A stretch of DNA of 64,000 nt, taken from Actinomycetes bacterium. GTDB lineage: Bacteria; Actinomycetota; JAICYB01. The notes below the pieces were generated by a model, which had not been told where the DNA came from, ran no database searches, and saw only the letters and a program-made list of their open reading frames with translations. A program made the translations under genes and the position numbers. The stretch covers positions 12,688-76,687 of the forward strand of contig JAICYB010000004.1 in NCBI GenBank assembly GCA_025934435.1. The letters are read 5' to 3'. The stretch's first letter is position 1. Every line of letters begins with the position of its first letter. Of the stretch, positions 14,634-33,167 are shown piece by piece.

Positions 14634-15016
14634 TGCGCATCGTCGCGACCGTAGTGAGCGTCTGGATCGCATGGCGCTGGATCGGGTTCTTCGTCGGGAT
14701 CGTGCGTGTGCGCGGCTTCGAGAAAGGCGCGGACCGCCGCGAAGCGCGTCGAAGCGTCATCGCGCGCGGCGCGATCAACGTGTTCCTGTCGGTTGCGGTG
14801 CTCTACCTATGGGCGTCCGTCGAACATCAACAACCGAACGACGTCTTCGTGGGATTCCTCGCCGCGGCGATGATGTGCTCGCTCGCGATCGGCGTCGCCA
14901 CGGCGTTCATGCAGCCACAGGAACGCAACCCGGAAACGCTGAACATCTGCAGCGTCTTCAGACGGAAAGCTCGGCCGCCCGAACCGTATTCCACATCAGC
15001 ATCGTCCGAGTCATAG
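14633..15016 (+). CDS. small hypothetical membrane protein
   Basis: GTG overlapping the previous stop; three hydrophobic helices (VATVVSVWIAWRWIGFFVGIV...). The track ORF 14321..15016 extends upstream in this frame. Confidence 0.3.
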   Translation: MRIVATVVSVWIAWRWIGFFVGIVRVRGFEKGADRREARRSVIARGAINVFLSVAVLYLWASVEHQQPNDVFVGFLAAAMMCSLAIGVATAFMQPQERNPETLNICSVFRRKARPPEPYSTSASSES

Positions 15017-15815
15017 GACCGACGCCGCCGGGAACCGGCGTGATCGCGCGGACCTTCTGCGAAACCGCGTCGAAGTCGACGTCGCCGATGAGCTTGCCCT
15101 CGGCGTTCGCCGTCGTGCCGACGTCGATGACGACACAGTCCTGCGTGACGTGATCGGCCGTGATCATCCCCGGCGAGCCGGCGGCGGCCACGAGGATATC
15201 GGCCGTCAGCGTGTAGCGCGAAAGGTCTTTCGTTCCGGTGTGGCAGAGCGTGACCGTCGCGTTCGCGTCGGCCATCTTCGACGAGAGCAACACCGAGAGC
15301 GGACGACCCACCAGGTTGCTTCGTCCGACGATCACGACGTGTTTGCCTTCGATCTCGTAACCGCTCCGTACGAGCAGCTGCTGCACCCCGTACGGCGTGC
15401 ACGAGATGAAGCGCGGCTGACCGCGCATGAGCATGCCTTGGTTGCGTGAGGTCAGGCCGTCGACGTCTTTGTTCGGGTCGATGCGCTCGAGGAACGCGGG
15501 TTCGTCCAAGTGCTTCGGGATGGGCGTCTGCAGGAGGATGCCGTGGATGGACGGATCCGCGTTCAGCGAATCGATGAGCTCTTCGAGATCGTCCGGCTCG
15601 GTCCCCGGCGGCATCTTGTAGGTGACGGCTTCGATGTCCGTCTTCTGCGCGTCGCTGTTCTTGAGGCGCACGTAGGTCGCGGACGCTGGGTCGTCGCCGA
15701 CGAGGATCACGGCGAGGCCCGGCTGAACTCCCTTGTCACGAAGGACGGCCACGCGGTCCTTGAGTTCCGCGCGGATCTCTTTGGCGACCTTCTTGCCGTC
15801 GATGATCTCGGCCAT
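14958..15815 (-). CDS. folD: bifunctional methylenetetrahydrofolate dehydrogenase / methenyltetrahydrofolate cyclohydrolase
   Basis: 285 aa; conserved motifs IDGKKVA, YVRLKNSDAQ-like region, GRSNLVGRPL, PVPGGVGPMT. Confidence 0.9.
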   Translation of the reverse strand: MAEIIDGKKVAKEIRAELKDRVAVLRDKGVQPGLAVILVGDDPASATYVRLKNSDAQKTDIEAVTYKMPPGTEPDDLEELIDSLNADPSIHGILLQTPIPKHLDEPAFLERIDPNKDVDGLTSRNQGMLMRGQPRFISCTPYGVQQLLVRSGYEIEGKHVVIVGRSNLVGRPLSVLLSSKMADANATVTLCHTGTKDLSRYTLTADILVAAAGSPGMITADHVTQDCVVIDVGTTANAEGKLIGDVDFDAVSQKVRAITPVPGGVGPMTRTMLMWNTVRAAELSV

Positions 15816-22616: not shown

Positions 22617-25600
22617 ATGCGACCCTTCTTTCAGCGGCGCTTGTTCCGTCGTGTGTCGTTCCGTTCGAGGTCGGCGGCTAGTAAGCGATCGTCCCGGAAA
22701 CGCGAGCGCGTGCGTCTTTCAGCCGCCGCGCTGATCACGCTGTGTGCGCTTCTGGCAACGAGCGTCCAACCGGCGAACGCTTCGGTATCGCGCCCGAAGG
22801 CGCAGAAACCTCTCAAGAAGGTCGAGATTCTTCACTCGAGGCACCCACGCGCGATTCGGCCGAGGGTGTCGGGCGTGGCGCCGGTCACGTTCCATTCGGG
22901 CGATCGGAAGCGTCAGAAGCACCGTGCCGTGCGAGAACTGCGCTCGGACCGAACCGCGCTGTTGCGCGCCTTCGCCAACGACGACGGCACCATCACCATC
23001 CAGAACTATCTGACGCCGATCTTCCACAAGACGCACCGGGGCTGGGTGCCGATCCACAACGACATCGTGCGCCGTGGTCACCTGCTCGAAACGACAGGGA
23101 ACGCGTGGCGGACTGCGTTTGATGCGACGAAGTCCGGCATGAAGCTCAGCGCGCCGGAAGGAACGGTTCGCATCGTTCCCGTCGGGCCGAGGGGCAACGC
23201 CCGGCCGGATGTCATCAGCTCGCCGAACCGTCTGCGCTTCAGGAGTGCCCGCGGAACCTTGGCGCACACGGCGATCCCGCCTGCCGGCCTCGTCGGCTAC
23301 AGGGGGGTTTGGCGCGACGTCGACCTCCGCTACGAGGTCAGCGGGAACGGCTTGAAGGAGAACATCCAAGTCCGTTCGAGTAAGGCGCCCGCGGCATACG
23401 CCTTCGACGTCCTCGGCGCCATCTTGAAAGCAGACAAGCGTGGGGGCCTCGCTCTCGCCGGGCCACTCGGTCGGCGGTTCTACATACCTGCGTTGATGGT
23501 TCGGGGTGCGGACGGATCGCTGCTTACGTCGCCGTCGCGTGCGCGCTACGGGCTCACCGCTCTTCCTCACGGCAAAGGCACACGCGTTACGGTCACTCTC
23601 GATCAGTGGTGGCTGCGCTCACTTCCGAACAAGGCCTTCCCGCTCGACGTCGATCCGACCTTCGGCGACTGCCGTGGCACGGTCGGCGAATGCCCTGATA
23701 CGAACGCCATCACCCTCGGTAGCAACGGGTTCTCGAGCTCGAATACGACGGTGGACGTCGGACGCGACAGCTCCGGGAACATCTTTCGCGCGGCCATGTA
23801 CTTCCAGGACTACGAAACCTGGCTGAAGCAGGACTACCGCGTCTACGACTCACAGCTCGCGTTGAACGTCAGCCCGGGCGTCGGCACGCTCACCGTCGCC
23901 GATCAAGGATCGAACGATCCGACGTCACCGACATGGACCTACACGCAGCTTTCCAACGCGGGCGTTCCCATCGTCGGGACGTGGGATTCGACCATCCCCG
24001 GCAGCTCGACGGTGTTCGACGCGACCAATACCGTCGACCAGTGGTACGCCGGAAACCTGACCAAGCGCTGGTTCGGTATCACCGGGACGGAGACGGGGAG
24101 CTCGAACACCGAAGATTCGATGAACGGCTTCCTCACACTCGACGTGTACTTCCAACCGGCGGCGTCTCGGGTCACGAACCTTACGGCCAACCAGATCCTG
24201 TCGACGACGACACCGTCGCTTCAGGCCTTCGCCATACAGCCTGCGCCAAACACCGAATTCGCCAATGGCGGTTACGAGCCGATCTACGACTACGAGATCA
24301 CCACGTCGCCGGTCCCGGGCAAGAGCATCGTGGCGTCGTCGGGCGACCTCGGGTGTTCGAACAGCGATCCCGGGGTCTGGTCGTGTTCGCAGGACACCGA
24401 CGGCGGCGGACCGATCCCGACGTGGAACGTGCCGCCCGGCGCGCTGCAGGACGGCGTCACCTATTACGCCTGGGTCCTGACTGACTGGTCGAACAGGCCG
24501 TATGCGCTGTTCCACGACGGCGCGCCGGAAACCACGCCGCCCGCGTCGTGGGGCGTTCCCTTCAAGGTCGATCTCGGTCTCGGCAACGGCGGCAACTTCC
24601 CGACGGATGCCGTCGGCGCCGTTCCCGGAAGCGCGCAGACGCCCTCGGAGGGAGCACCGAACCCCGCGCTGCCGCCGTCGAAGGTCACGGTGAACCTCGT
24701 CGACGGCAACGCTGCCATCGCAGTCGACAACCCCAAGCTCGAGACCGTTTCCGGCGGAGCGCAGCTTCGCTTCACCTACAACTCGCTGGCGACGGCGCAG
24801 GAAGGCGTGCGCGGTCTGCAGGGCGACTACTACAACGACACCAACGGCAACGGCACGCTCGATCCGGGCACCGACGCCCTCGTGGCCGAGCGCACCGATC
24901 CGTCGGTGTGGTTCAACACGGGCTTCCCCGTGCAAGGCATCGTCGACGCGCAAAGCCCGGCGAAGGCCTTGGCCGAGTGGACCGGGTTTCTCACGCTGCC
25001 GAACTCGGATTCGTGGGAGATCGGCGACATCTCCTCCGACGGCGTGACGGCCACCGTGAACGGCGTCAGCCGGTTGAGCGACTTCGGCCCGCACGCCGCA
25101 CAGCCCAAGCCGACGTTCGGAACGAGCTTCGCGGCCACGCCGCAGATGCCCATCAAGATCGATTGGCACCACTCGAGCGGTCGTCCGTCGGTCATCGCCA
25201 TGTACGCCAAGGACATGGCCACCTGCGACGCGAACGGCAACAACTGCAAGGTCTACGCGCTCGACCCTTCTTGGCTCACGAGGGCACCGAAGACGCTTCC
25301 GGCCGGGTGGGCCTTCAACTCGACGGCCGCAACCGCGCAGTGGACGCGGCTTGTCGATCACGGCGACCTCGTCACCTTGTATGCCGACGACGGGACAGGC
25401 CATGTATTCACCCGCGCATCGGGTGGTCGCTACGTCGCGCCTCCAGAGACACCCCAAGACCTGCTGACGAACGTCGGGAACGGACAGTTCAACCTCGTGT
25501 CAGGCGGATACACCTACACCTTCGGTCCGACGGGCGACGCGATCTCCATCGTCACGACCAGCGACGATCTCCACCCGGCGGCCCCCCAGCACTCGTTCAC

Positions 25601-28600
25601 GGGCACGCCGCCGCTCCTACACACGATCACCGATCCGGTGCGATGCGCCGGCGCCGTCCCCTGCCCGTCGTCGAGCCAGGTGTCGCTCAACTACGGCGGC
25701 GATGCCGGCGCACCGGCGGAGTGCAACGGTGCGCCGAGCGGGATGCTCTGCTACATCTCGTACTTCGACGCCTCGGCCACGATCATCACCTACGACAGCT
25801 TCGGCAACCTCAGCCGCATCATCGAGCCGGGCAACGTCGTGTACGACTTCGCTTACGACTCGCTCGGGCGAGTGACGGATGTGCGCGACCCGTTGGCCTA
25901 CAACGCCATCCAGGCTGGTGTACGCGTGGACGATGCCACGGCCAAGACGCATATCACCTACGACTCGTCGTCGGCGACGGGGCGCGTGCAAACGATCACG
26001 CAGCCGGCGCCTGCCGCCGGCGGTGCGCGTCCCGAGCGTTTGTACTGTTACGGATCGGCCAAGGCGTACTCGGCCGGCGCGCCGTCGTGCAACACGGCGC
26101 AGGCGAACACGACATCGGTCGGCGTGTACGGCTTCAACCCGACCGTGGGCTACGCGTATCAAGAGCAGTACGACTCGCGGAACCGCAAGGTCGCTTCCTT
26201 CGACTCAGCCGGCCTGAAGACGAGCTACACGTGGGACGACAAGGACCGCCAGGTGACGACGGTCGATCCTGCCGGCCTCGAAACCTCGACCATCTACGAC
26301 GCGCTCGGTCACGCCGTGACGAACTACGGACCGGCGGCGAAGGCGTTGTTCAACGCCGACGGCACGCTTATCACACCGGGCAGCGCGCCGACGACGCAGA
26401 AAACCTACGACGGCGGCATCACGGGTCTCGCGGCGTCGTGGTATCCGACGACCGATCTCAGCGGATCAGCCGCCTACCACACGACGTCGAACCTGGCGGA
26501 CACGTGGTCGGGGGCGTGCAACTCGCCGTCGGCATGCAACGGCGGCGGCACGGTCATCCCAGCCTCCGGATTCTCGGGCGATCTCAGCGGGAAAGTGACG
26601 CTTCCTTCACCGGGCCGGATCAGCTTCGACGGCGACGGCGGCCGCGTGCTCGTCGACGGACATCTCGTTGTGGATCAGAAGGACGGACCTCTATCGGCGG
26701 CCGTGCGTGCCGATCATCCGCTCGACTTCTGGCGCCTGGCCGACGCGACGGGATCGACGCTCGCCGCCGACTCGAGCGGCGCCCTCGCCGGCACCTACAG
26801 TCCGTCCGGTACGACGCGAGGGGTTGGCGGGCCGGCAAGCGGCGACAACGCGACGGCCGCGACATTCGACGGAACGGCCGGCAACATCACCATCCCAGAC
26901 GATCCGACCCTTCGCTTCGACCGTCTCCAGCCGTTCTCCGTCGAGGCGTGGATCAAGACGTCGAGCGCCACGACGCAAGTCATCGCGTCCAAGCTTCCCA
27001 ACGCCGGCAGCGGCTGGGAGCTCGATGTGTCGAGCGGGAAGCTGCTGTTCCTGCTGACGAACTCCTATCCGTCCAACACCATCCAGCGCTCGGGATCCGT
27101 AACTCTCACCGACGGCAACTGGCATCACGTCGCGGTGACCTACGACGGATCATCGACGGCCGCCGGCGTGACGTTCTACGAGGACGGCGTAGCCGATCCG
27201 GCGCCGGTGACGAACGTCGACACCCTGACCTCGGACCCGCGGGGAACGTCGGGACTCAACATCGGGTCACGTCCGGCCGACGGCTTCTTCTTCAACGGGA
27301 CCATCGCCGACGTCGCCGTCTACAACCAGCAGGTGAGCGCCGCCCGCATCGCCGCGCACAAAGCCGCCGCCGCCTTACTGTCGAGCGCGGCGGCGAGCCC
27401 GATCATCTACAACTCGCCCTACCCCACCGCTGTGGACGCGAATTCACCGACGTCGTTCTGGCGTCTCGGCGAAGCATCGGGAACCACCGCGACAGATTCC
27501 AACGGTTCGAGCAACGGCATGTACACGGGGTCGGTGACCTTGAACCAGCCCGGACCGATACCTGGAGACCCGTCGACGTCGGCGATCTTCGGCGGCGGCA
27601 CCGGAACGGTGAGCGTTCCAGATTCGCCGGCGCTGCGTGTCAACCAGTCGCAGCCGTTCAGCGTCGAAGCGTGGGTGAAGACCACCACGTCGAGCCAGAT
27701 GGCCATCGCTTCGAAAATGCCGGGCACGGGCTCATTGCAGGGTTGGGAGTTCGGGCTCGCGTCGGGCAAGCCGTATCTCACGGTGATCAATACGGTCGCT
27801 ACGAACTGGATCGATGTCGCCGCTTCGACGAGCGTCGTGGACGGCCGCTGGCATCATCTGGTCGGAACCTACGACGGCAGCTCGAGAGCATCGGGCGTGC
27901 ATCTGTACATCGACGGCCACATCGACGGCGGTCCCGGCCTCATCTTCGGCGATTCGCTTTCGGCATCGTCGGCATCGTCGGTGCCGCTGTACATCGGTTC
28001 GCGGGCAGCGAACAGCCTGTGGTTCTTCGGGAACCTGGCCAACGTCGCCATGTATCCGAATGCGCTCGGCGCCGACGACGTCGCGCGTCATGCTGTAGCC
28101 GGTCAAGGTCCCGTGCCGCTCACCGTGCAGCAGGACGGCGCCGCCTCGTATTGGCGGCTTGGCGAGTCGCTCCCGCAGGTCAAGGCGCTCGATATGACGG
28201 GCGCCAACAACGCTACGTACAGCCCCCTCGGGTGCGGACAGACAACGGGCGGGTTGAACGGCGATGCGAACGGTGCCACCACCTTCGACGGCACGAACTG
28301 CAACGTAAGCGTCGGGGAGATGCCGAGCCTTCGGGTCGGGCGTACGCAGGCGGCGAGCATCGAGGCATGGGTCAAGACGACGGCGGCGGTAACGCAAGTG
28401 ATCGCAGCCAAGATGGCCAACACGTCTCCGTTCACCGGCTGGGACTTCGTGATGAATCCCAGTGGTCAGCTCTACTTCCAGCTCATCTCGAGCTGGACGG
28501 CAAGCGCCATCGAGGTCGACGGGACGAAGGTGCTGAAGGACGGTGCATGGCACCACGTCGCTGCGACCTATGACGGCAGCGGAGTCGCTGCCGGCGTCAA

Positions 28601-31600
28601 GCTCTATGCCGACGGTGTCGCCGATACGGTGACCATCTCGCACGACACGCTCGGCACGACGAACCCGACGAATTCCTCGAACCCGTTCACCATCGGGTCG
28701 CGCGCGACGGGTCTGAACTTCAACGGATCGATGTCCGACGTCGCCTTCTACGACCGCGCACTGTCGAGCGACCAGGTGGCGAACCACCGCAATGCCGGCA
28801 TCACCGCGCCACCGGCTCCGGTCACCGATCACCGCATCGACGTGCAGGACCAGCAGTTCGTCGCCGGCGGTCACCTCACGGTCACGTCGGCGGCAGCGAC
28901 GTTCGGTCCGAACTACGGGCTGCTCACCCAGACCACCGACCCCGACGGCAAGATCACGCAGACGCAGTACGCCGACGCGGTGAACGGCATCGACCCGAAG
29001 TTCGGCCTGCCCACGGCGACCATCCAGGACCCGAGCACGCTGAATCTCAAGACGTCGACCGCCTACGAGCCGCCGGGCGCGACGAGCTTCCTGCGGCGTG
29101 TATCGAAGACGCTTCCTGCCGGCAACCAGACGACGTATGCGAACTACGCGGGAAACGATCCGCCCATCGCCAACGTGTGCGGGGTCACGGCGTCCACGCT
29201 GCAAGCCGGGCTTCCCAAACAAGAGACCGATCCCGTTCCGGCCGTCGGTTCGGCGCGCGTCGAGCAGTACGTCTACGACTCGCTCGGCCGCGAGGCCGGA
29301 CACCGCATCGGCACGACAGCCACCATCTCGTCGGTCGGCTGGGACTGCACGACCTACGACGCCGCGGGTCGCATGGTGACGCAGTCGTGGCCGGCCTTCG
29401 GATCGCAGCCGTCACGCACCGCCACGTACACATACGGCGTCGGCTCCCCGACGCCGAATCCGCTCGTCAACTCGGTGACCGATACGACGTGGCCGGCGCA
29501 GTCCATCTCGACGACCGTCGACCTGCTCGGCCGGACCGTGAGCTACAGCGACATCTGGGGACAGACGACGACGACGACCTTCGACCAAGCGGGCCGGGTC
29601 ACCGACACCGCCGGACCAGTCGGGGCGCGCCACACCGACTACGACGGCGCCGGACGAGTCTCAGATCAGATGCTCGGCGCTCAGAAGGTCGCTGTGCCCG
29701 GCTACGACGCGCCGACCGGACGGATGACGAGCGTGTCCTACCCGACGGGGACCGGCAACGGCGGCAACGGCAGCAACCTCGCCATCGGATACGACGCCAA
29801 CGGCCGCCAGAATTCCTTGAGCGCCACGGGGCCGGGTTCAGCCCTCATCACCTCAGACAGCGACGTCTTCAGCGCTGGCGCGCGGGTGAGCTCGGAGACC
29901 ATCGACGGCAACTCCGGCAGTCCTTCTTCCTTCGGCTACGACGGCGCCGGCCGGCTCACGACGGCCACCGTCCCCGGCCACACCCTCACCTACAACTACG
30001 CCGCCACCGGCGGATGCGGTCCTGAAGCGGCGGCGGGAAACAACACGAACCGCACGAGCGTGGTCGACGGCGCGACGACCACGACGTACTGCTACGACAA
30101 CGCGGACCGTCTCACTTCGACCTCCGACGCCCGCTACACGACGCCGACCTACGACGATCATGGCAACACGTCTTCGATCGGCGACGAGACCATCACCTAC
30201 GACGCCGCCGACCGCCACCTGGCCACGACGACGACCGGCGGTGCCTTGCCGACCACGGTCAATTACCTCCGCGATCCCCTCGACCGCATCGCCGAGCGCG
30301 ACGCCACCGTGATCCCGCCGCTCGGCCGCCGCACGCCTGGGACCATCGCCACGACATCGACCACGGTGACGAGCATCGCTGTCCCGAAACCGGCAGGAAC
30401 CGTTTCCGGCGACTTCCTGCTCGCCGACATCTCCGAACGCGGGACGCCGACCATCACCCCGCCGTCGGGATGGACACTGCTCAACTCGACGGCGAGCGGC
30501 ACGACGGTGACCGATGCCGTCTACTACAAGGTCGCGGGATCGAGCGAGCCGGCGTCGTACACCTTCTCGTTTTCGACAGCTACCTCGGCCACCGGAGCGA
30601 TCATGGGCTACGTGGGCGTCGATACCACGAACCCCATCGACACTTCGGGTGTCGTGACGGACACCAACGTGACCTCGCACACCGCTCCCGCCGTGACCAC
30701 GACGAGCCCTGACGACATGCTGCTCGTCATCTTGGCCTCCGACGGCAACAGCACCGTCACCAAGGACGCGCAGACCACGCAGCAGTGGTTCCTCAAGAGC
30801 GCCGCGGCCAGCAACAACGTGGAGTCCGACGGCGCCGACCAGGTCGTCACCAAGACCGGCTCGACAGGTACGCGCAGCGTCACCACGGCCACGGCGCAGA
30901 GCTCGGTCGTGCGCTCCATCGCCTTGAAGTCGCGCCCGGTGGCGCCCATCGCCTTCCGCGACGTTGCCACGGCCACCACCGGAGCCTCGATCCTCACACC
31001 GCTCGTCGTGCCGAGACCGGCCAAGGCCCTGCCGGGCGATCTGCTCGTTGCCGACGTCTCCCTTGTCGGCGCACCGACCATCACCACGCCGCCGGGATGG
31101 ACGGCGTTGCCGCCCCAGGTCATCGCGGGCCTGCTCACCGACGAGATCTTCTACAAGGTGGCGACCTCCTCCGAGCCGACCTCGTACTCCTTCGCCTTCT
31201 CGGCGGCCACCTCGGCCACCGGCGCCATCACCGCCTACTCGGGCGTCGATCCGCTCAACCCCATCGACGTCTCAGCCGTGGCCACCGACGGCTCGACGAC
31301 GACGACGCACACGGCGCCGAGCGTCACGACGACCTCGCCCGCCGACACCGCGCTGTTCATCCTCGACGCAGCCGGTAACAGTGCCGTCACCCCGGACGCG
31401 CAGACGACGCAGCGCTGGAACCTGGCGACGACGGCAGCCACCAACGTGCAGAGCAACGGCGCCGACCAGCTGATCGCGGCCGCCGGCGCAACGGGCACAC
31501 GAACGATCAAGACGGCGACCGCGGCGCGCGGGATCATGCGCTCCATCGCCCTTCGGCCGCAGGCCGTGAGCCGCACACGCTACGGCTACGAGGGCCACGA

Positions 31601-32348
31601 CGACTCACCGTCACTCGAGATGGACGGCGCGGGCAGCATTATCGACCGCACGGTGTCGCTCGCCGGTGGCGTGGTCGTCACGCGCACCGTCGCCACGGCA
31701 ACCTCCACCGACACCTGGAGCTACCCGAACGTGCATGGAGACGTGGCTGCGACGGCGAACGGCAGCGGCGCCAAGGTTGGGTCGACACTCACCTACGATC
31801 CGTATGGTCAGCCGCTCGCGGGAAACGCGTCCGATACGTCGAGCAACTTCTCGTTCGGCTGGGAAGGATCGAAAGAGAAGCTGACGGAGCATCAAGACGA
31901 CATCGCGACCATCGAGATGGGAGCGCGTCAGTATGTCTCGGGTCTCGGGAGATTCCTCAGCGTTGATCCGGTTGAAGGTGGGTGTGCGAACGCGTACGTC
32001 TTTGCGTTCGGTGATCCTGTCAGCTATCCCGATCTCAATGGCTTGCGGTCAAAGCCGTGTAGCTCTAAGCACCACCACGGCTTGGGTTTCTATATAGGCG
32101 TTGCAGTTGTCGGCGGTTTTGTAGCAGGCGCGGCGGCAGCGGGCAGTGTCGCCGCCGGCGGTGCGGCAATTGCTACCGTTGCTAGCGCGGTTCTTGCGGG
32201 AAACGCTCCGCTCATCCCCGACGCGGTCTCCGACGTCGCCCGAGCAGTAGTCACTGCCGCGACCTTCCTCGGGGGCGCAGCGGGCGCGGTCGGAACGCAC
32301 AACGAGATTTGTAATGGTCAACGTCATGTGGAGGCGCCGCAGCCGTGA
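22617..32348 (+). CDS. secreted RHS/YD-repeat polymorphic toxin (WapA/teneurin-like), 3243 aa
   Basis: GGAGG RBS 7 nt upstream of the ATG. N-terminal signal-peptide-like segment (RKRERVRLSAAALITLCALLATSVQPANA). Two PA14-like domains (GLQGDYYNDTNGNG...; ASWYP...VLVDGHLVVD). Three LamG/ConA-like repeats (WRL..[AS]G....D..G...G.Y...Q.FSVEAW[IV]KT...WHH...TYDG). Numerous YD repeats (YDSLGR.., YDAAGR.., FGYDGAGRLT..). RHS terminal repeat (WSYPNVHGDVAATANGSGAKVGSTLTYDPYGQPL) and core (GARQYVSGLGRFLSVDPVEGG.NAYVFAFGDPVSYPDLNGL) followed by a short variable tip. Confidence 0.9.
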   Translation: MRPFFQRRLFRRVSFRSRSAASKRSSRKRERVRLSAAALITLCALLATSVQPANASVSRPKAQKPLKKVEILHSRHPRAIRPRVSGVAPVTFHSGDRKRQKHRAVRELRSDRTALLRAFANDDGTITIQNYLTPIFHKTHRGWVPIHNDIVRRGHLLETTGNAWRTAFDATKSGMKLSAPEGTVRIVPVGPRGNARPDVISSPNRLRFRSARGTLAHTAIPPAGLVGYRGVWRDVDLRYEVSGNGLKENIQVRSSKAPAAYAFDVLGAILKADKRGGLALAGPLGRRFYIPALMVRGADGSLLTSPSRARYGLTALPHGKGTRVTVTLDQWWLRSLPNKAFPLDVDPTFGDCRGTVGECPDTNAITLGSNGFSSSNTTVDVGRDSSGNIFRAAMYFQDYETWLKQDYRVYDSQLALNVSPGVGTLTVADQGSNDPTSPTWTYTQLSNAGVPIVGTWDSTIPGSSTVFDATNTVDQWYAGNLTKRWFGITGTETGSSNTEDSMNGFLTLDVYFQPAASRVTNLTANQILSTTTPSLQAFAIQPAPNTEFANGGYEPIYDYEITTSPVPGKSIVASSGDLGCSNSDPGVWSCSQDTDGGGPIPTWNVPPGALQDGVTYYAWVLTDWSNRPYALFHDGAPETTPPASWGVPFKVDLGLGNGGNFPTDAVGAVPGSAQTPSEGAPNPALPPSKVTVNLVDGNAAIAVDNPKLETVSGGAQLRFTYNSLATAQEGVRGLQGDYYNDTNGNGTLDPGTDALVAERTDPSVWFNTGFPVQGIVDAQSPAKALAEWTGFLTLPNSDSWEIGDISSDGVTATVNGVSRLSDFGPHAAQPKPTFGTSFAATPQMPIKIDWHHSSGRPSVIAMYAKDMATCDANGNNCKVYALDPSWLTRAPKTLPAGWAFNSTAATAQWTRLVDHGDLVTLYADDGTGHVFTRASGGRYVAPPETPQDLLTNVGNGQFNLVSGGYTYTFGPTGDAISIVTTSDDLHPAAPQHSFTGTPPLLHTITDPVRCAGAVPCPSSSQVSLNYGGDAGAPAECNGAPSGMLCYISYFDASATIITYDSFGNLSRIIEPGNVVYDFAYDSLGRVTDVRDPLAYNAIQAGVRVDDATAKTHITYDSSSATGRVQTITQPAPAAGGARPERLYCYGSAKAYSAGAPSCNTAQANTTSVGVYGFNPTVGYAYQEQYDSRNRKVASFDSAGLKTSYTWDDKDRQVTTVDPAGLETSTIYDALGHAVTNYGPAAKALFNADGTLITPGSAPTTQKTYDGGITGLAASWYPTTDLSGSAAYHTTSNLADTWSGACNSPSACNGGGTVIPASGFSGDLSGKVTLPSPGRISFDGDGGRVLVDGHLVVDQKDGPLSAAVRADHPLDFWRLADATGSTLAADSSGALAGTYSPSGTTRGVGGPASGDNATAATFDGTAGNITIPDDPTLRFDRLQPFSVEAWIKTSSATTQVIASKLPNAGSGWELDVSSGKLLFLLTNSYPSNTIQRSGSVTLTDGNWHHVAVTYDGSSTAAGVTFYEDGVADPAPVTNVDTLTSDPRGTSGLNIGSRPADGFFFNGTIADVAVYNQQVSAARIAAHKAAAALLSSAAASPIIYNSPYPTAVDANSPTSFWRLGEASGTTATDSNGSSNGMYTGSVTLNQPGPIPGDPSTSAIFGGGTGTVSVPDSPALRVNQSQPFSVEAWVKTTTSSQMAIASKMPGTGSLQGWEFGLASGKPYLTVINTVATNWIDVAASTSVVDGRWHHLVGTYDGSSRASGVHLYIDGHIDGGPGLIFGDSLSASSASSVPLYIGSRAANSLWFFGNLANVAMYPNALGADDVARHAVAGQGPVPLTVQQDGAASYWRLGESLPQVKALDMTGANNATYSPLGCGQTTGGLNGDANGATTFDGTNCNVSVGEMPSLRVGRTQAASIEAWVKTTAAVTQVIAAKMANTSPFTGWDFVMNPSGQLYFQLISSWTASAIEVDGTKVLKDGAWHHVAATYDGSGVAAGVKLYADGVADTVTISHDTLGTTNPTNSSNPFTIGSRATGLNFNGSMSDVAFYDRALSSDQVANHRNAGITAPPAPVTDHRIDVQDQQFVAGGHLTVTSAAATFGPNYGLLTQTTDPDGKITQTQYADAVNGIDPKFGLPTATIQDPSTLNLKTSTAYEPPGATSFLRRVSKTLPAGNQTTYANYAGNDPPIANVCGVTASTLQAGLPKQETDPVPAVGSARVEQYVYDSLGREAGHRIGTTATISSVGWDCTTYDAAGRMVTQSWPAFGSQPSRTATYTYGVGSPTPNPLVNSVTDTTWPAQSISTTVDLLGRTVSYSDIWGQTTTTTFDQAGRVTDTAGPVGARHTDYDGAGRVSDQMLGAQKVAVPGYDAPTGRMTSVSYPTGTGNGGNGSNLAIGYDANGRQNSLSATGPGSALITSDSDVFSAGARVSSETIDGNSGSPSSFGYDGAGRLTTATVPGHTLTYNYAATGGCGPEAAAGNNTNRTSVVDGATTTTYCYDNADRLTSTSDARYTTPTYDDHGNTSSIGDETITYDAADRHLATTTTGGALPTTVNYLRDPLDRIAERDATVIPPLGRRTPGTIATTSTTVTSIAVPKPAGTVSGDFLLADISERGTPTITPPSGWTLLNSTASGTTVTDAVYYKVAGSSEPASYTFSFSTATSATGAIMGYVGVDTTNPIDTSGVVTDTNVTSHTAPAVTTTSPDDMLLVILASDGNSTVTKDAQTTQQWFLKSAAASNNVESDGADQVVTKTGSTGTRSVTTATAQSSVVRSIALKSRPVAPIAFRDVATATTGASILTPLVVPRPAKALPGDLLVADVSLVGAPTITTPPGWTALPPQVIAGLLTDEIFYKVATSSEPTSYSFAFSAATSATGAITAYSGVDPLNPIDVSAVATDGSTTTTHTAPSVTTTSPADTALFILDAAGNSAVTPDAQTTQRWNLATTAATNVQSNGADQLIAAAGATGTRTIKTATAARGIMRSIALRPQAVSRTRYGYEGHDDSPSLEMDGAGSIIDRTVSLAGGVVVTRTVATATSTDTWSYPNVHGDVAATANGSGAKVGSTLTYDPYGQPLAGNASDTSSNFSFGWEGSKEKLTEHQDDIATIEMGARQYVSGLGRFLSVDPVEGGCANAYVFAFGDPVSYPDLNGLRSKPCSSKHHHGLGFYIGVAVVGGFVAGAAAAGSVAAGGAAIATVASAVLAGNAPLIPDAVSDVARAVVTAATFLGGAAGAVGTHNEICNGQRHVEAPQP

Positions 32349-32737
32349 GCTGGTACTTGCGCAACAGAGTAGCAATCCATCTCGGCACCGTCCTTGTCGC
32401 AGGTTTGAATCTGCTCTTGGCGCTCCATCTCCGCATTTACGGAGGCATCCTTGCTCTGGATGTCGCCTTTGTCGTGTTCGGATTGATAGCCGGACCGATC
32501 CTTGGGCGAGTTCTCGTCCGGACGGAGAATCGACCTTCCCGACCCCGAACGCGACGGGCGTCCCTCGTGAGGTGGGTCATATTCGGCGTAGTTGCCGGAG
32601 GAACGATCGCTATCAGCATTGCGATCATTGTTTCCAACGTAGGTTGGCTACCTTTCGCCCTGATCTTCGGTCCTTTCGCAACTGCGATGACCTTCTTCCT
32701 CCTTAAACGCTGGCACGCTCGCTCGTCGAGGTCATGA
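32345..32737 (+). CDS. putative immunity protein (polytopic membrane protein) for the RHS C-terminal toxin
   Basis: GTG start overlapping the RHS stop (GTGA); 130 aa with 4 hydrophobic helices; position and coupling typical of cognate immunity genes. Confidence 0.5.
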   Translation: MSWYLRNRVAIHLGTVLVAGLNLLLALHLRIYGGILALDVAFVVFGLIAGPILGRVLVRTENRPSRPRTRRASLVRWVIFGVVAGGTIAISIAIIVSNVGWLPFALIFGPFATAMTFFLLKRWHARSSRS

Positions 32738-33167
32738 CTGGCGACATGGACCATGATCCATGACTGTCCGTACCTCCGTGAGAACGCATGACACCCAGCC
32801 GGCGAAATGTAACGTGGTGCTCAAGCAGCTTGACGTCGCGTCGGCTGCTGATGCCGACGCCTGATGTGATGTCACGATTCACCGTTTAGAAAGAGTGTTC
32901 GTTGCGGATTTCTCGCTAGCAACGCCGTCAGCATCCGGTGCGGCTCCCCGCGAACGGAGCCGGCGGCATCCATGGAGCGAAGTCGGCGCTCAGGTCGTAA
33001 TCGACGCACTCGACTGCGTGCCGTGCGGCGCGCCACCGCGCCGACCGCCGCTGCAGGAGTGCGGAGCGCGCGGGCCGGATGTGACGGGCTCACCCTCTCG
33101 GACCCGGCTGCTCCGGACCGATGAAATCGCCGGTCACGAACGTCGTCGCTCAACAGATCGACGCCGT

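Follow-up and report, generated by a model that had tools for sequence, protein, structure and literature searches.

RHS proteins that enclose a pore-forming peptide are known from Tse5 (RhsP1, PA2684), an effector of the H1 type VI secretion system (H1-T6SS) of Pseudomonas aeruginosa, whose C-terminal fragment Tse5-CT is neutralised by the membrane protein Tsi5 (PMC9637101, PMC10684867). The catalytic residues of Tse5 are D1141 and D1164, and the protein is cut at L1168|I1169 (PMC10684867). Membrane depolarisation is also brought about by glycine-zipper LXG toxins of the type VIIb secretion system (T7SSb), namely EsxX/ExiCD(+ExiAB) and TspA/TsaI of Staphylococcus aureus and TelE/TipE of Streptococcus gallolyticus; the zipper is defined as (G/A/S)xxxGxxxG or GxxxGxxx(G/S/T), and immunity to channel-forming effectors comes "in almost all cases" from polytopic membrane proteins (PMC12744356). 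The ionophore toxins of contact-dependent growth inhibition (CDI; the CdiA-CT EC93 group) consist of an entry domain and a five-helix bundle, are carried on CdiA filaments in Gram-negatives and use membrane-protein receptors (PMC11630599). Tox-WTIP, the only pore-forming domain that Zhang et al. 2012 catalogued for polymorphic toxins, is found in proteobacteria only (PMC3482391). RHS toxins exported by the Sec pathway are represented by Bacillus subtilis WapA and Streptococcus suis WapA-CT1 (PMC12704120). Here we describe a giant RHS/YD-repeat protein with a hydrophobic C-terminal tip, and the small membrane-protein gene coupled to it, in a 64,000-nt stretch of contig JAICYB010000004.1 (hereafter the window) from an Actinomycetes bacterium (assembly GCA_025934435.1, positions 12,688 to 76,687).

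We propose, with a probability of roughly 0.6, that the protein is a Sec-exported WapA-like RHS toxin, that its core protease would cut off a non-enzymatic tip able to insert into and depolarise a membrane, and that the coupled four-helix protein is the matching membrane immunity protein. The proposal starts from features seen at the locus (RHS identity, an intact protease motif, a tail in the payload position, hydrophobic helical anatomy, gene coupling, membrane topology and cassette composition), to which cleavage, encapsulation, membrane insertion, pore formation and protection would be added by analogy with the systems above. By every sequence criterion that could be tested, the locus reads as a bona fide RHS polymorphic toxin. 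Its features are listed in Table 1.

Table 1. Features of the RHS toxin locus, in window coordinates (aa, amino acids; nt, nucleotides; GC3, G+C content at third codon positions; ORF, open reading frame).
Feature	Position	Strand	Basis or remark
C-terminal tip, aa 3144-3243, 100 aa	32046..32345	+	composition, hydropathy, AlphaFold2
Candidate immunity gene, 130 aa	32345..32737	+	four-helix integral membrane protein, predicted
RHS repeat-associated core, aa 3060-3143	31794..32045	+	TIGR03696, 4.8e-10, above its cut-off
RHS/YD-repeat polymorphic toxin gene	22617..32348	+	single ORF, 3243 aa
Predicted Sec signal peptide, aa 1-56	22617..22784	+	read from sequence
GGAGG Shine-Dalgarno	32330..32334	+	10 nt 5' of GTG, within final RHS codons
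Low-GC3 block	31750..32900		core end, tip, immunity ORF and ~160 nt downstream; probable extent of cassette

The end of the RHS core places the tip in the payload slot. The TIGR03696 match stops at exactly L3143, and the core terminus reads GRFLSVDPVEGGCANAYVFAFGDPVSYPDLNGL, in which we recognise the RHS aspartyl-protease motif in the form DPVE-x18-DLNGL (pattern DPxG-x18-DxxG(L)). Catalysis is predicted to fall to D3117 (nt 31965) and D3139 (nt 32031), which lie 22 residues apart, and by comparison with the Tse5 cut site cleavage is predicted after L3143 (nt 32045). The second part of the motif begins with DL, Leu replacing Pro, as it does in 93 of the 111 closest clade relatives among the matches listed. 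An initial annotation of this DNA had predicted an autoproteolysis motif ahead of the tip, and the register of the motif, the spacing of its Asp residues and the end point of the TIGR03696 match bear this out; its coordinates need correcting, from about 32050-32064 to 32031-32045 for DLNGL (residues 3139-3143), that is, about 19 nt further upstream, and the tip, given as ~95 aa, has 100 aa and starts at 32046.

The tip, RSKPCSSKHHHGLGFYIGVAVVGGFVAGAAAAGSVAAGGAAIATVASAVLAGNAPLIPDAVSDVARAVVTAATFLGGAAGAVGTHNEICNGQRHVEAPQP, is rich in small and hydrophobic residues (24 Ala, 15 Gly and 13 Val, with 3 Arg, 5 Pro and zero Trp), in agreement with its earlier description as a Gly/Ala-rich hydrophobic tail. 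It consists of a polar Cys/His linker (residues 1-11), a Gly/Ala/Val hydrophobic segment (12-52), a NAPLIP turn, an amphipathic-to-hydrophobic helix (57-83) and a polar Cys/His tail (84-100); its cysteines, C5 and C89, lie in the two Cys/His-rich polar ends. Asp, Glu, Lys and Arg together account for 9 of the 100 residues and are absent from the run 9-58. This 50-aa uncharged run (residues 3152-3201 of the protein) is the longest in the whole RHS protein, the next being 33 aa, and all windows with a Kyte-Doolittle score of at least 1.4 lie in the tip, apart from those of the signal peptide.

It could be argued that these properties are artefacts, with the gene truly ending at the core and the tail and 130-aa ORF being chance frames in GC-rich DNA, or the tail being the frameshifted remnant of a toxin. 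DNA of this kind yields long spurious Ala/Gly-rich ORFs, many of which are present here, and the frame of the tip does not stand out by its GC3 (0.62). The tip frame is, however, continuous with the 3143-aa RHS body, and its 50-aa uncharged run is not a by-product of GC-rich DNA: a run of this length arose in 0 of 20000 nucleotide shuffles and in 0 of the 1465 windows of 100 codons that we read out of frame from this gene. The 28 hydrophobic windows of the tip were matched by 3 of the 1465 out-of-frame windows and by 0 of the 20000 shuffles. The content of 3 Arg and 5 Pro is also unlike out-of-frame translations of GC-rich sequence; the other frames in 32046-32737 are Arg/Pro-rich, and none has a family match. 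The downstream ORF, for its part, overlaps the RHS stop codon (GTGA), is preceded by a Shine-Dalgarno sequence and encodes four helices at regular intervals that obey the positive-inside rule. We regard an artefact as highly improbable.

In a single-sequence AlphaFold2 model the tip forms two helices, at residues 11-50 and 57-80, with a turn at NAPLIP (pLDDT, the model's confidence score, is low at 63). The hydrophobic moment is 0.4-0.49 at residues 49-78, which are amphipathic, and at most 0.16 at residues 10-57, so that the first segment is uniformly hydrophobic. The tip had previously been described as dominated by small-xxx-small repeats. Such pairs are present (23, compared to 19.1 +/- 2.5 in shuffles; P = 0.09), as are strict glycine-zipper motifs at tip residues 20-28, 72-80 and 76-84 (3, compared to 1.06 expected; P = 0.10), and the longest i+4 chain of small residues has 6 members (5.0 expected), but neither the pairs nor the motifs are enriched beyond what the composition gives. 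The tip is a Gly/Ala/Val-rich hydrophobic segment containing zipper motifs; a periodic repeat is not demonstrated. We also made a crude estimate of translocon insertion with the scale values reported by Hessa et al. 2005. By this estimate segment 1 of the tip scores +1.9 kcal/mol, similar to two of the helices of the immunity protein, and segments 2 and 3 score +3.2 and +4.5 kcal/mol and are marginally hydrophobic.

The downstream ORF is tightly coupled to the RHS gene, its GTG start codon overlapping the RHS stop codon TGA (GTGA). Its hydrophobic segments (residues 9-30, 31-58, 76-98 and 101-121) and the helices of its AlphaFold2 model (3-31, 36-61, 70-98 and 102-127; pLDDT 62) are both four in number and, with the overlap and the GGAGG sequence, uphold the earlier description of a coupled 130-aa four-helix protein. 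The 63 hydrophobic windows in this ORF were reached by 0 of 20000 shuffles. The protein is basic at its N-terminus, in a central loop (very basic, RTENRPSRPRTRRASLVR) and at its C-terminus, and its predicted N-in/C-in topology, in keeping with the positive-inside rule, puts a basic loop (aa 56-76) in the cytoplasm. It exists as a called protein in NCBI data (P0001). We found no convincing terminator 3' of the ORF. Its second helix has a GxxxGxxxG motif of its own, GLIAGPILG (aa 46-54; 32480-32506), which is a candidate packing surface against the small-residue faces of the tip.

Base composition sets the end of the RHS gene and the ORF apart from the DNA around them. Across the low-GC3 block, GC content falls from ~0.70 to 0.54-0.64, and the bulk value is restored only near 32900. 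GC3 is 0.85 in the RHS body, passes through 0.74, 0.64, 0.54 and 0.70 in steps from core to tip, is 0.63 in the immunity ORF and is again 0.85 in the next gene. This common drop in the core end, tip and ORF indicates one compositionally foreign block, as in a swapped toxin-immunity cassette, and we conclude from it that the three were probably imported horizontally as a single cassette. The drop begins ~280 nt 5' of the cleavage motif, inside the core-coding region, which suggests that the conserved core, and not the motif, contains the recombination junction of the cassette. Within the window we found neither another RHS core nor an orphan tip module, and no paralogue of the immunity gene.

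Database searches returned neither protein's relatives. A search of a word-indexed database of 5.8 billion proteins found no homologue of the tip; a full HMMER search of 1.84 billion representatives found its own protein (P0122) alone, and the search with the immunity ORF likewise found only itself (P0001). The tip matched no Pfam family at E up to 1, the glycine-zipper families Gly-zipper_Omp, Gly-zipper_OmpA, Gly-zipper_YMGG and Rick_17kDa_Anti included; the ORF matched no Pfam family, and neither of them matched any in NCBIfam. The lack of a Pfam or NCBIfam match for the tip, together with its 9 charged residues in 100, agrees with the earlier statement that it has no enzymatic hallmark. 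The same annotation had called the pair very likely an uncharacterised toxin family: at the sequence level it is uncharacterised, HMMER finding only the tip itself, but it stands as a singleton for which a family could not be demonstrated. Against the PDB, phmmer found nothing at E up to 1 with the last 350 aa of the RHS protein and nothing significant with the tip or the ORF; matches to a Gly/Ala stretch of a "cation transporter" (6pe4_Q/9ux0_A) had E = 0.23-0.39 and were taken as compositional. The last 600 aa of the RHS protein had no relative on the contigs of GTDB species representatives, so the source genome is not one of these.

With the core and tip together as the query, we recovered 135 RHS fragments, mostly metagenomic or from bacteria labelled Actinomycetota. 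Most of the 120 matches listed (P0002-P0121) align to the core alone, ~52% of the query. These core relatives diverge wholly after D-L-x-G and none has a similar tip, so this is a polymorphic payload slot. The 106 tips that we took from them after D-L-x-G include none significantly like the window tip (best E = 0.08 in a 106-sequence database). A single match, P0002, spans 95% of the core-plus-tip query. We considered it as a tip homologue, but the comparison of the two tips gave E = 0.02 by BLASTP and nothing by phmmer, so homology is unproven. P0002 is an orphan 266-aa RHS C-terminal fragment (gene 864-1664 on a 6913-bp contig of JGI 3300043313). Its tip has the same layout as the window tip, with a polar Cys/His linker, ~70 hydrophobic residues and a polar tail with a second Cys; the two Cys are 78 residues apart in P0002 and 84 in the window tip. 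No gene is called in the 566-bp gap 3' of P0002.

Hydrophobic tips are frequent in this group. In 32 of 78 core-aligned relatives (41%) the tip contains a 19-residue window with a Kyte-Doolittle score of at least 1.5, and in 14 of the 78 the score is at least 2.0. These 78 were drawn from the matches listed because they align through the core only, and so were not chosen by tip similarity, although word-based selection of candidates may have biased the sample somewhat. The hydrophobic tips of the relatives often contain Gly/Ala and Cys and are mutually unrelated in sequence. They seemingly form a large uncatalogued class of membrane-type RHS payloads in metagenomic bacteria labelled as actinobacteria. 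At ~40% of the RHS proteins with the closest cores, the class would be common and has probably been overlooked because such tips escape domain databases; the window tip is one more member of an abundant class rather than a new principle. The abundance of hydrophobic tips in the clade merits a systematic survey.

Several of these results weigh against a depolarising toxin with membrane immunity. Zipper periodicity in the tip is not above what its composition predicts, and both structure models are of low confidence (pLDDT 62-63). With segment 1 at +1.9 kcal/mol, export of the tip could halt within the Sec channel of the producer itself, which would make the tip an anchor. Without homologues of the tip or ORF, there is no conservation or co-variation evidence for paired evolution. 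Finally, we looked at five loci with analogous hydrophobic RHS tips and found that the next gene codes for a protein with two transmembrane (2-TM) helices in two of them and for a soluble protein in two others, and is missing from the fifth. The initial annotation had called integral-membrane immunity the rule for toxins of this kind, and according to PMC12744356 this holds for almost all channel-forming effectors, but a membrane protein is downstream in only 2 of these 5 loci.

The products of two genes downstream of other hydrophobic RHS tips, at L001 2220-2663 and L090 3376-3843, are similar to each other in plan. Each is ~150 aa long, with two N-terminal TM helices followed by a soluble domain of ~80 aa. 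Immunity to membrane-type tips may recurrently take this form, which differs from the four-helix protein of the window. We also noticed an array of RHS C-terminal and small-ORF modules on another contig (L002 1-3815; GCA_017884165.1, JAGELE010003796.1). Among its members are a 2-TM protein of 100 aa (990-1292) and, adjoining a bPH_6-domain protein, a Gly/Ala-rich hydrophobic protein of 123 aa (1441-1812); the array looks like a stack of displaced toxin-immunity modules.

The insertion estimate and the five loci bear on the view that the tail is no toxin at all, being instead a C-terminal stop-transfer anchor, or decayed filler, that tethers or plugs the RHS protein, the ORF then being an unrelated small membrane protein or a partner in anchoring or export. 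A C-terminal hydrophobic stretch can indeed be a stop-transfer anchor in Sec substrates, and by the crude estimate tip segment 1 scores about as well as real helices of the neighbouring protein, but the tip is Ala/Gly-rich and its segments 2 and 3 are marginal (+3.2 and +4.5 kcal/mol), unlike typical Leu/Ile-rich anchors. The tail also sits in the payload slot, where an intact aspartyl-protease motif would sever an anchor from its protein, and it was apparently imported with a coupled gene as a low-GC3 cassette, the signature of toxin-immunity exchange. An anchor would be compatible with a tip that has no homologues and with the analogous tips that lack a downstream membrane protein; yet the hyper-variable hydrophobic tips in 32 of the 78 core relatives suggest diversification in an arms race, not a structural anchor. 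On balance we consider a non-toxin tail quite unlikely.

The same diversity can be read in another way, in which the tip is a membrane-targeted toxin that makes no pore. It could poison or hijack a specific membrane protein (for example, a transporter, or a flippase or synthase of cell-wall precursors), and the four-helix protein would compete with it or mask the target. The anatomy of the pair would be identical. CDI ionophore toxins require specific membrane-protein receptors (PMC11630599) and class II microcins likewise need one, but the CDI ionophores have two domains (five-helix bundle and entry domain), next to which a tip of 100 aa is small, and with only 11 polar residues before its hydrophobic part the tip has no receptor-binding or "entry" domain. 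Nor does it resemble colicin V or the class II microcins in sequence: we rejected this likeness when BLASTP against a CvaC sequence gave E = 2.6. What speaks for recognition of a protein is that a unique tip sequence, in a clade of hyper-diverse tips, fits protein-protein recognition better than generic insertion into lipid, and that the conserved-looking Cys/His-rich ends (C5 and C89; Cys 78 apart in P0002) suggest a defined fold. We think a receptor-directed toxin unlikely, and we continue with the depolarising tip.

The carrier protein comprises a Sec-type signal peptide, a PA14-like domain, three LamG-type domains, YD repeats, the RHS core and the tip. Pfam identifies Laminin_G_3 (three domains, 2e-64), RHS_repeat in four stretches (5e-12) and, weakly, PA14, and NCBIfam identifies TIGR03696 (the RHS core), TIGR01643 and YD_repeat_2x (4.4e-08). 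There was no Pfam match to PAAR, VgrG or LXG in the protein. The N-terminus of the protein reads MRPFFQRRLFRRVSFRSRSAASKRSSRKRERVRLSAAALITLCALLATSVQPANA|SV, a predicted signal peptide with a very basic n-region, an h-region (LSAAALITLCALLATSV) and a c-region with an AxA site (QPANA|SV). The h-region, residues 31-53, is the sole hydrophobic window of the RHS protein outside the tip on the Kyte-Doolittle scale. The database copy of the protein, P0122 (3157 aa), starts 86 codons 3' of the ATG at 22617 (region 22617-22877) and has no signal peptide. Given the convincing Sec-type signal peptide encoded by the extra codons of the longer ORF, 5' truncation of the public gene model is probable and would conceal how the protein is exported.

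No components of a T6SS or T7SS (type VII secretion system) occur among the neighbouring genes in the window, and with the signal peptide this makes Sec/WapA-type delivery likely. The neighbours are metabolic, coding for MetE-like proteins, dehydrogenases, a luciferase-like monooxygenase, a cupredoxin and an amidase. Scans of the window for Rfam families and tRNAs found none. Elsewhere in the window, FolD (14958-15815, minus strand) has no more than 56% identity to species-representative genomes, with its best matches in Dehalococcoidia, Planctomycetota, metagenome-assembled genomes labelled Deltaproteobacteria, and Bacillota; the host therefore seems to come from a sparsely represented lineage.

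Between the last YD repeats and the core, at ~30340-31500, the RHS protein contains an unannotated domain of ~190 aa in two tandem copies (aa ~2575-2765 and ~2775-2960), with the approximate consensus ...PPxGWT...YYKVA.SSEP.SY.F.F..ATSATGAI..Y.GVD..NPID.... One copy searched against Pfam remained without a match when E was allowed to rise to 10. Directly 5' of its core, a related RHS gene from a metagenome (L004, 11..2485) likewise has a doubled domain. The domain in the window protein could serve as an insertion in the shell or as a module at the surface.

These features suggest the following sequence of events. The 3243-aa precursor would be exported by way of its N-terminal signal peptide, which is seen here as a sequence feature. 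The YD-repeat shell would then fold round the tip, and the D3117/D3139 protease would cut after L3143, so that the tip of 100 aa stays soluble within the shell; the protease motif is visible in the sequence, and cleavage and encapsulation are modelled on Tse5, RhsA and the Tc toxins. The LamG and PA14-like domains may bind a glycan on the surface of a neighbouring cell. Freed at the cytoplasmic membrane of the target, the 40-residue Gly/Ala/Val segment and the amphipathic helix could insert as a helical hairpin, and copies of the tip could self-associate through their small-residue faces into ion-conducting pores, collapsing the membrane potential, as its composition and the precedents of glycine zippers and Tse5 suggest. 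In the membrane of the producer and its kin, the four-helix protein would bind the tip helices or block their insertion or oligomerisation, and it may also shield the producer during export, as the tip crosses its own membrane.

If the tip does depolarise membranes, the principle of Tse5, an RHS cocoon carrying an insoluble pore-forming peptide, would extend beyond the proteobacteria that have a T6SS, to a WapA-like RHS protein that leaves the cell by Sec and belongs to a little-sampled high-GC lineage. Killing without an injection apparatus would have a simple explanation, the target being the first membrane met. Being sequence orphans among ~15 billion proteins, the tip and the four-helix protein would offer a new minimal toxin-immunity pair (100 aa and 130 aa) for studying how membrane immunity recognises a cognate helix. 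To a specialist the mechanism, being established elsewhere, would be expected and not surprising. A broader interpretation, which we put forward as a tentative and somewhat doubtful possibility, is that the pair is one example of a large, hyper-diverse, uncharacterised set of membrane-active payloads. This set would dominate one clade of RHS proteins with Sec export, found in uncultured bacteria of soil and sediment that have high GC and are probably actinobacterial. The cocoon would then be a solubilising chaperone that delivers a pore peptide, without an injection machine, to an exposed cytoplasmic membrane, and each pair would be a private orphan lock-and-key, possibly disulfide-stapled through the flanking Cys. 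Were this true, the unsolved problem of how WapA-type tips enter cells would be solved here, since entry would not be needed.

Compared with known systems, the window pair is most like Tse5/Tsi5. In both, an RHS cocoon ends in a short C-terminal fragment that is hydrophobic and non-enzymatic and is predicted to form TM and amphipathic helices; both have an aspartyl protease (DPxG-x18-DPxG) that cuts just after a Leu (predicted for the window protein) and an adjacent gene for a small integral membrane protein, which for the window is a candidate immunity protein; and membrane depolarisation would be expected of both. They differ in that the tip showed no sequence similarity to the Tse5 system, either by HMMER against the whole library or in the PDB, which holds cryo-electron microscopy entries for Tse5 (PMC10684867), and the ORF found only itself. 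Tse5, with its PAAR-like N-terminus, is launched by the T6SS together with VgrG4, whereas the window protein has a Sec signal, LamG and PA14-like domains and no T6SS genes. Its tip is also shorter (100 aa compared to ~149 aa), its candidate immunity protein has four predicted helices where Tsi5 has two, and its second protease motif is DLNG in place of DPxG.

The glycine-zipper LXG toxins share with the window protein a Gly-rich hydrophobic C-terminal segment with (G/A/S)xxxGxxxG, in a polymorphic toxin of bacteria without an outer membrane (presumably so for the window). Action on the cytoplasmic membrane from outside and protection by downstream polytopic membrane proteins would be further likenesses, if the window pair works as we suppose. 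The window tip contains three motifs of the defined form, in a number not significantly above its composition. It is carried by a Sec-signal-bearing RHS cocoon and not by an LXG domain with Lap partners and a T7SS, and the LXG toxins gave no sequence matches to the tip by HMMER among the 1.84 billion representatives. A soluble cytoplasmic immunity gene like ExiAB or TipE is absent at the window locus, which would fit co-translocational export through Sec, with the tip never folding in the cytoplasm.

In its carrier, the window protein resembles WapA: both are giant YD-repeat proteins with an N-terminal Sec signal, surface-binding N-terminal modules (putatively so in the window protein) and no dedicated injection machinery. 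A polymorphic toxin that is autocleaved from the C-terminus and has its immunity gene next to it is a further likeness predicted for the window protein. The characterised WapA tips, however, are enzymes of a soluble kind, for the most part tRNases, and their immunity proteins are soluble too, whereas the window has a predicted membrane peptide and membrane immunity, and LamG and PA14-like modules replace the LysM/cell-wall-binding repeats. Tox-WTIP is likewise a small, very hydrophobic, two-helix predicted pore-forming tip that is sometimes carried on RHS proteins, but its RxxR (helix 1) and Wx[ST]IP (helix 2) motifs are missing from the window tip, which has no Trp. CDI ionophores are polymorphic C-terminal toxins that dissipate the membrane potential and are countered by polymorphic, cognate-specific integral-membrane CdiI proteins, as we suppose for the window pair; the window tip differs in its 100-aa length, its two or three helices, its RHS carrier and its lack of similarity by HMMER.

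To our knowledge, the pore formers on RHS proteins that have been characterised to date are all delivered by a T6SS. The novelty of the window pair is nevertheless smaller than the initial annotation implied, since RHS-encapsulated pore-forming tips with membrane immunity, and glycine-zipper depolarising tips on other carriers, are known (PMC9637101, PMC10684867, PMC12744356). Our best reading is that the pair would work like Tse5-CT/Tsi5 and the glycine-zipper LXG toxins, yet belongs by sequence to neither.

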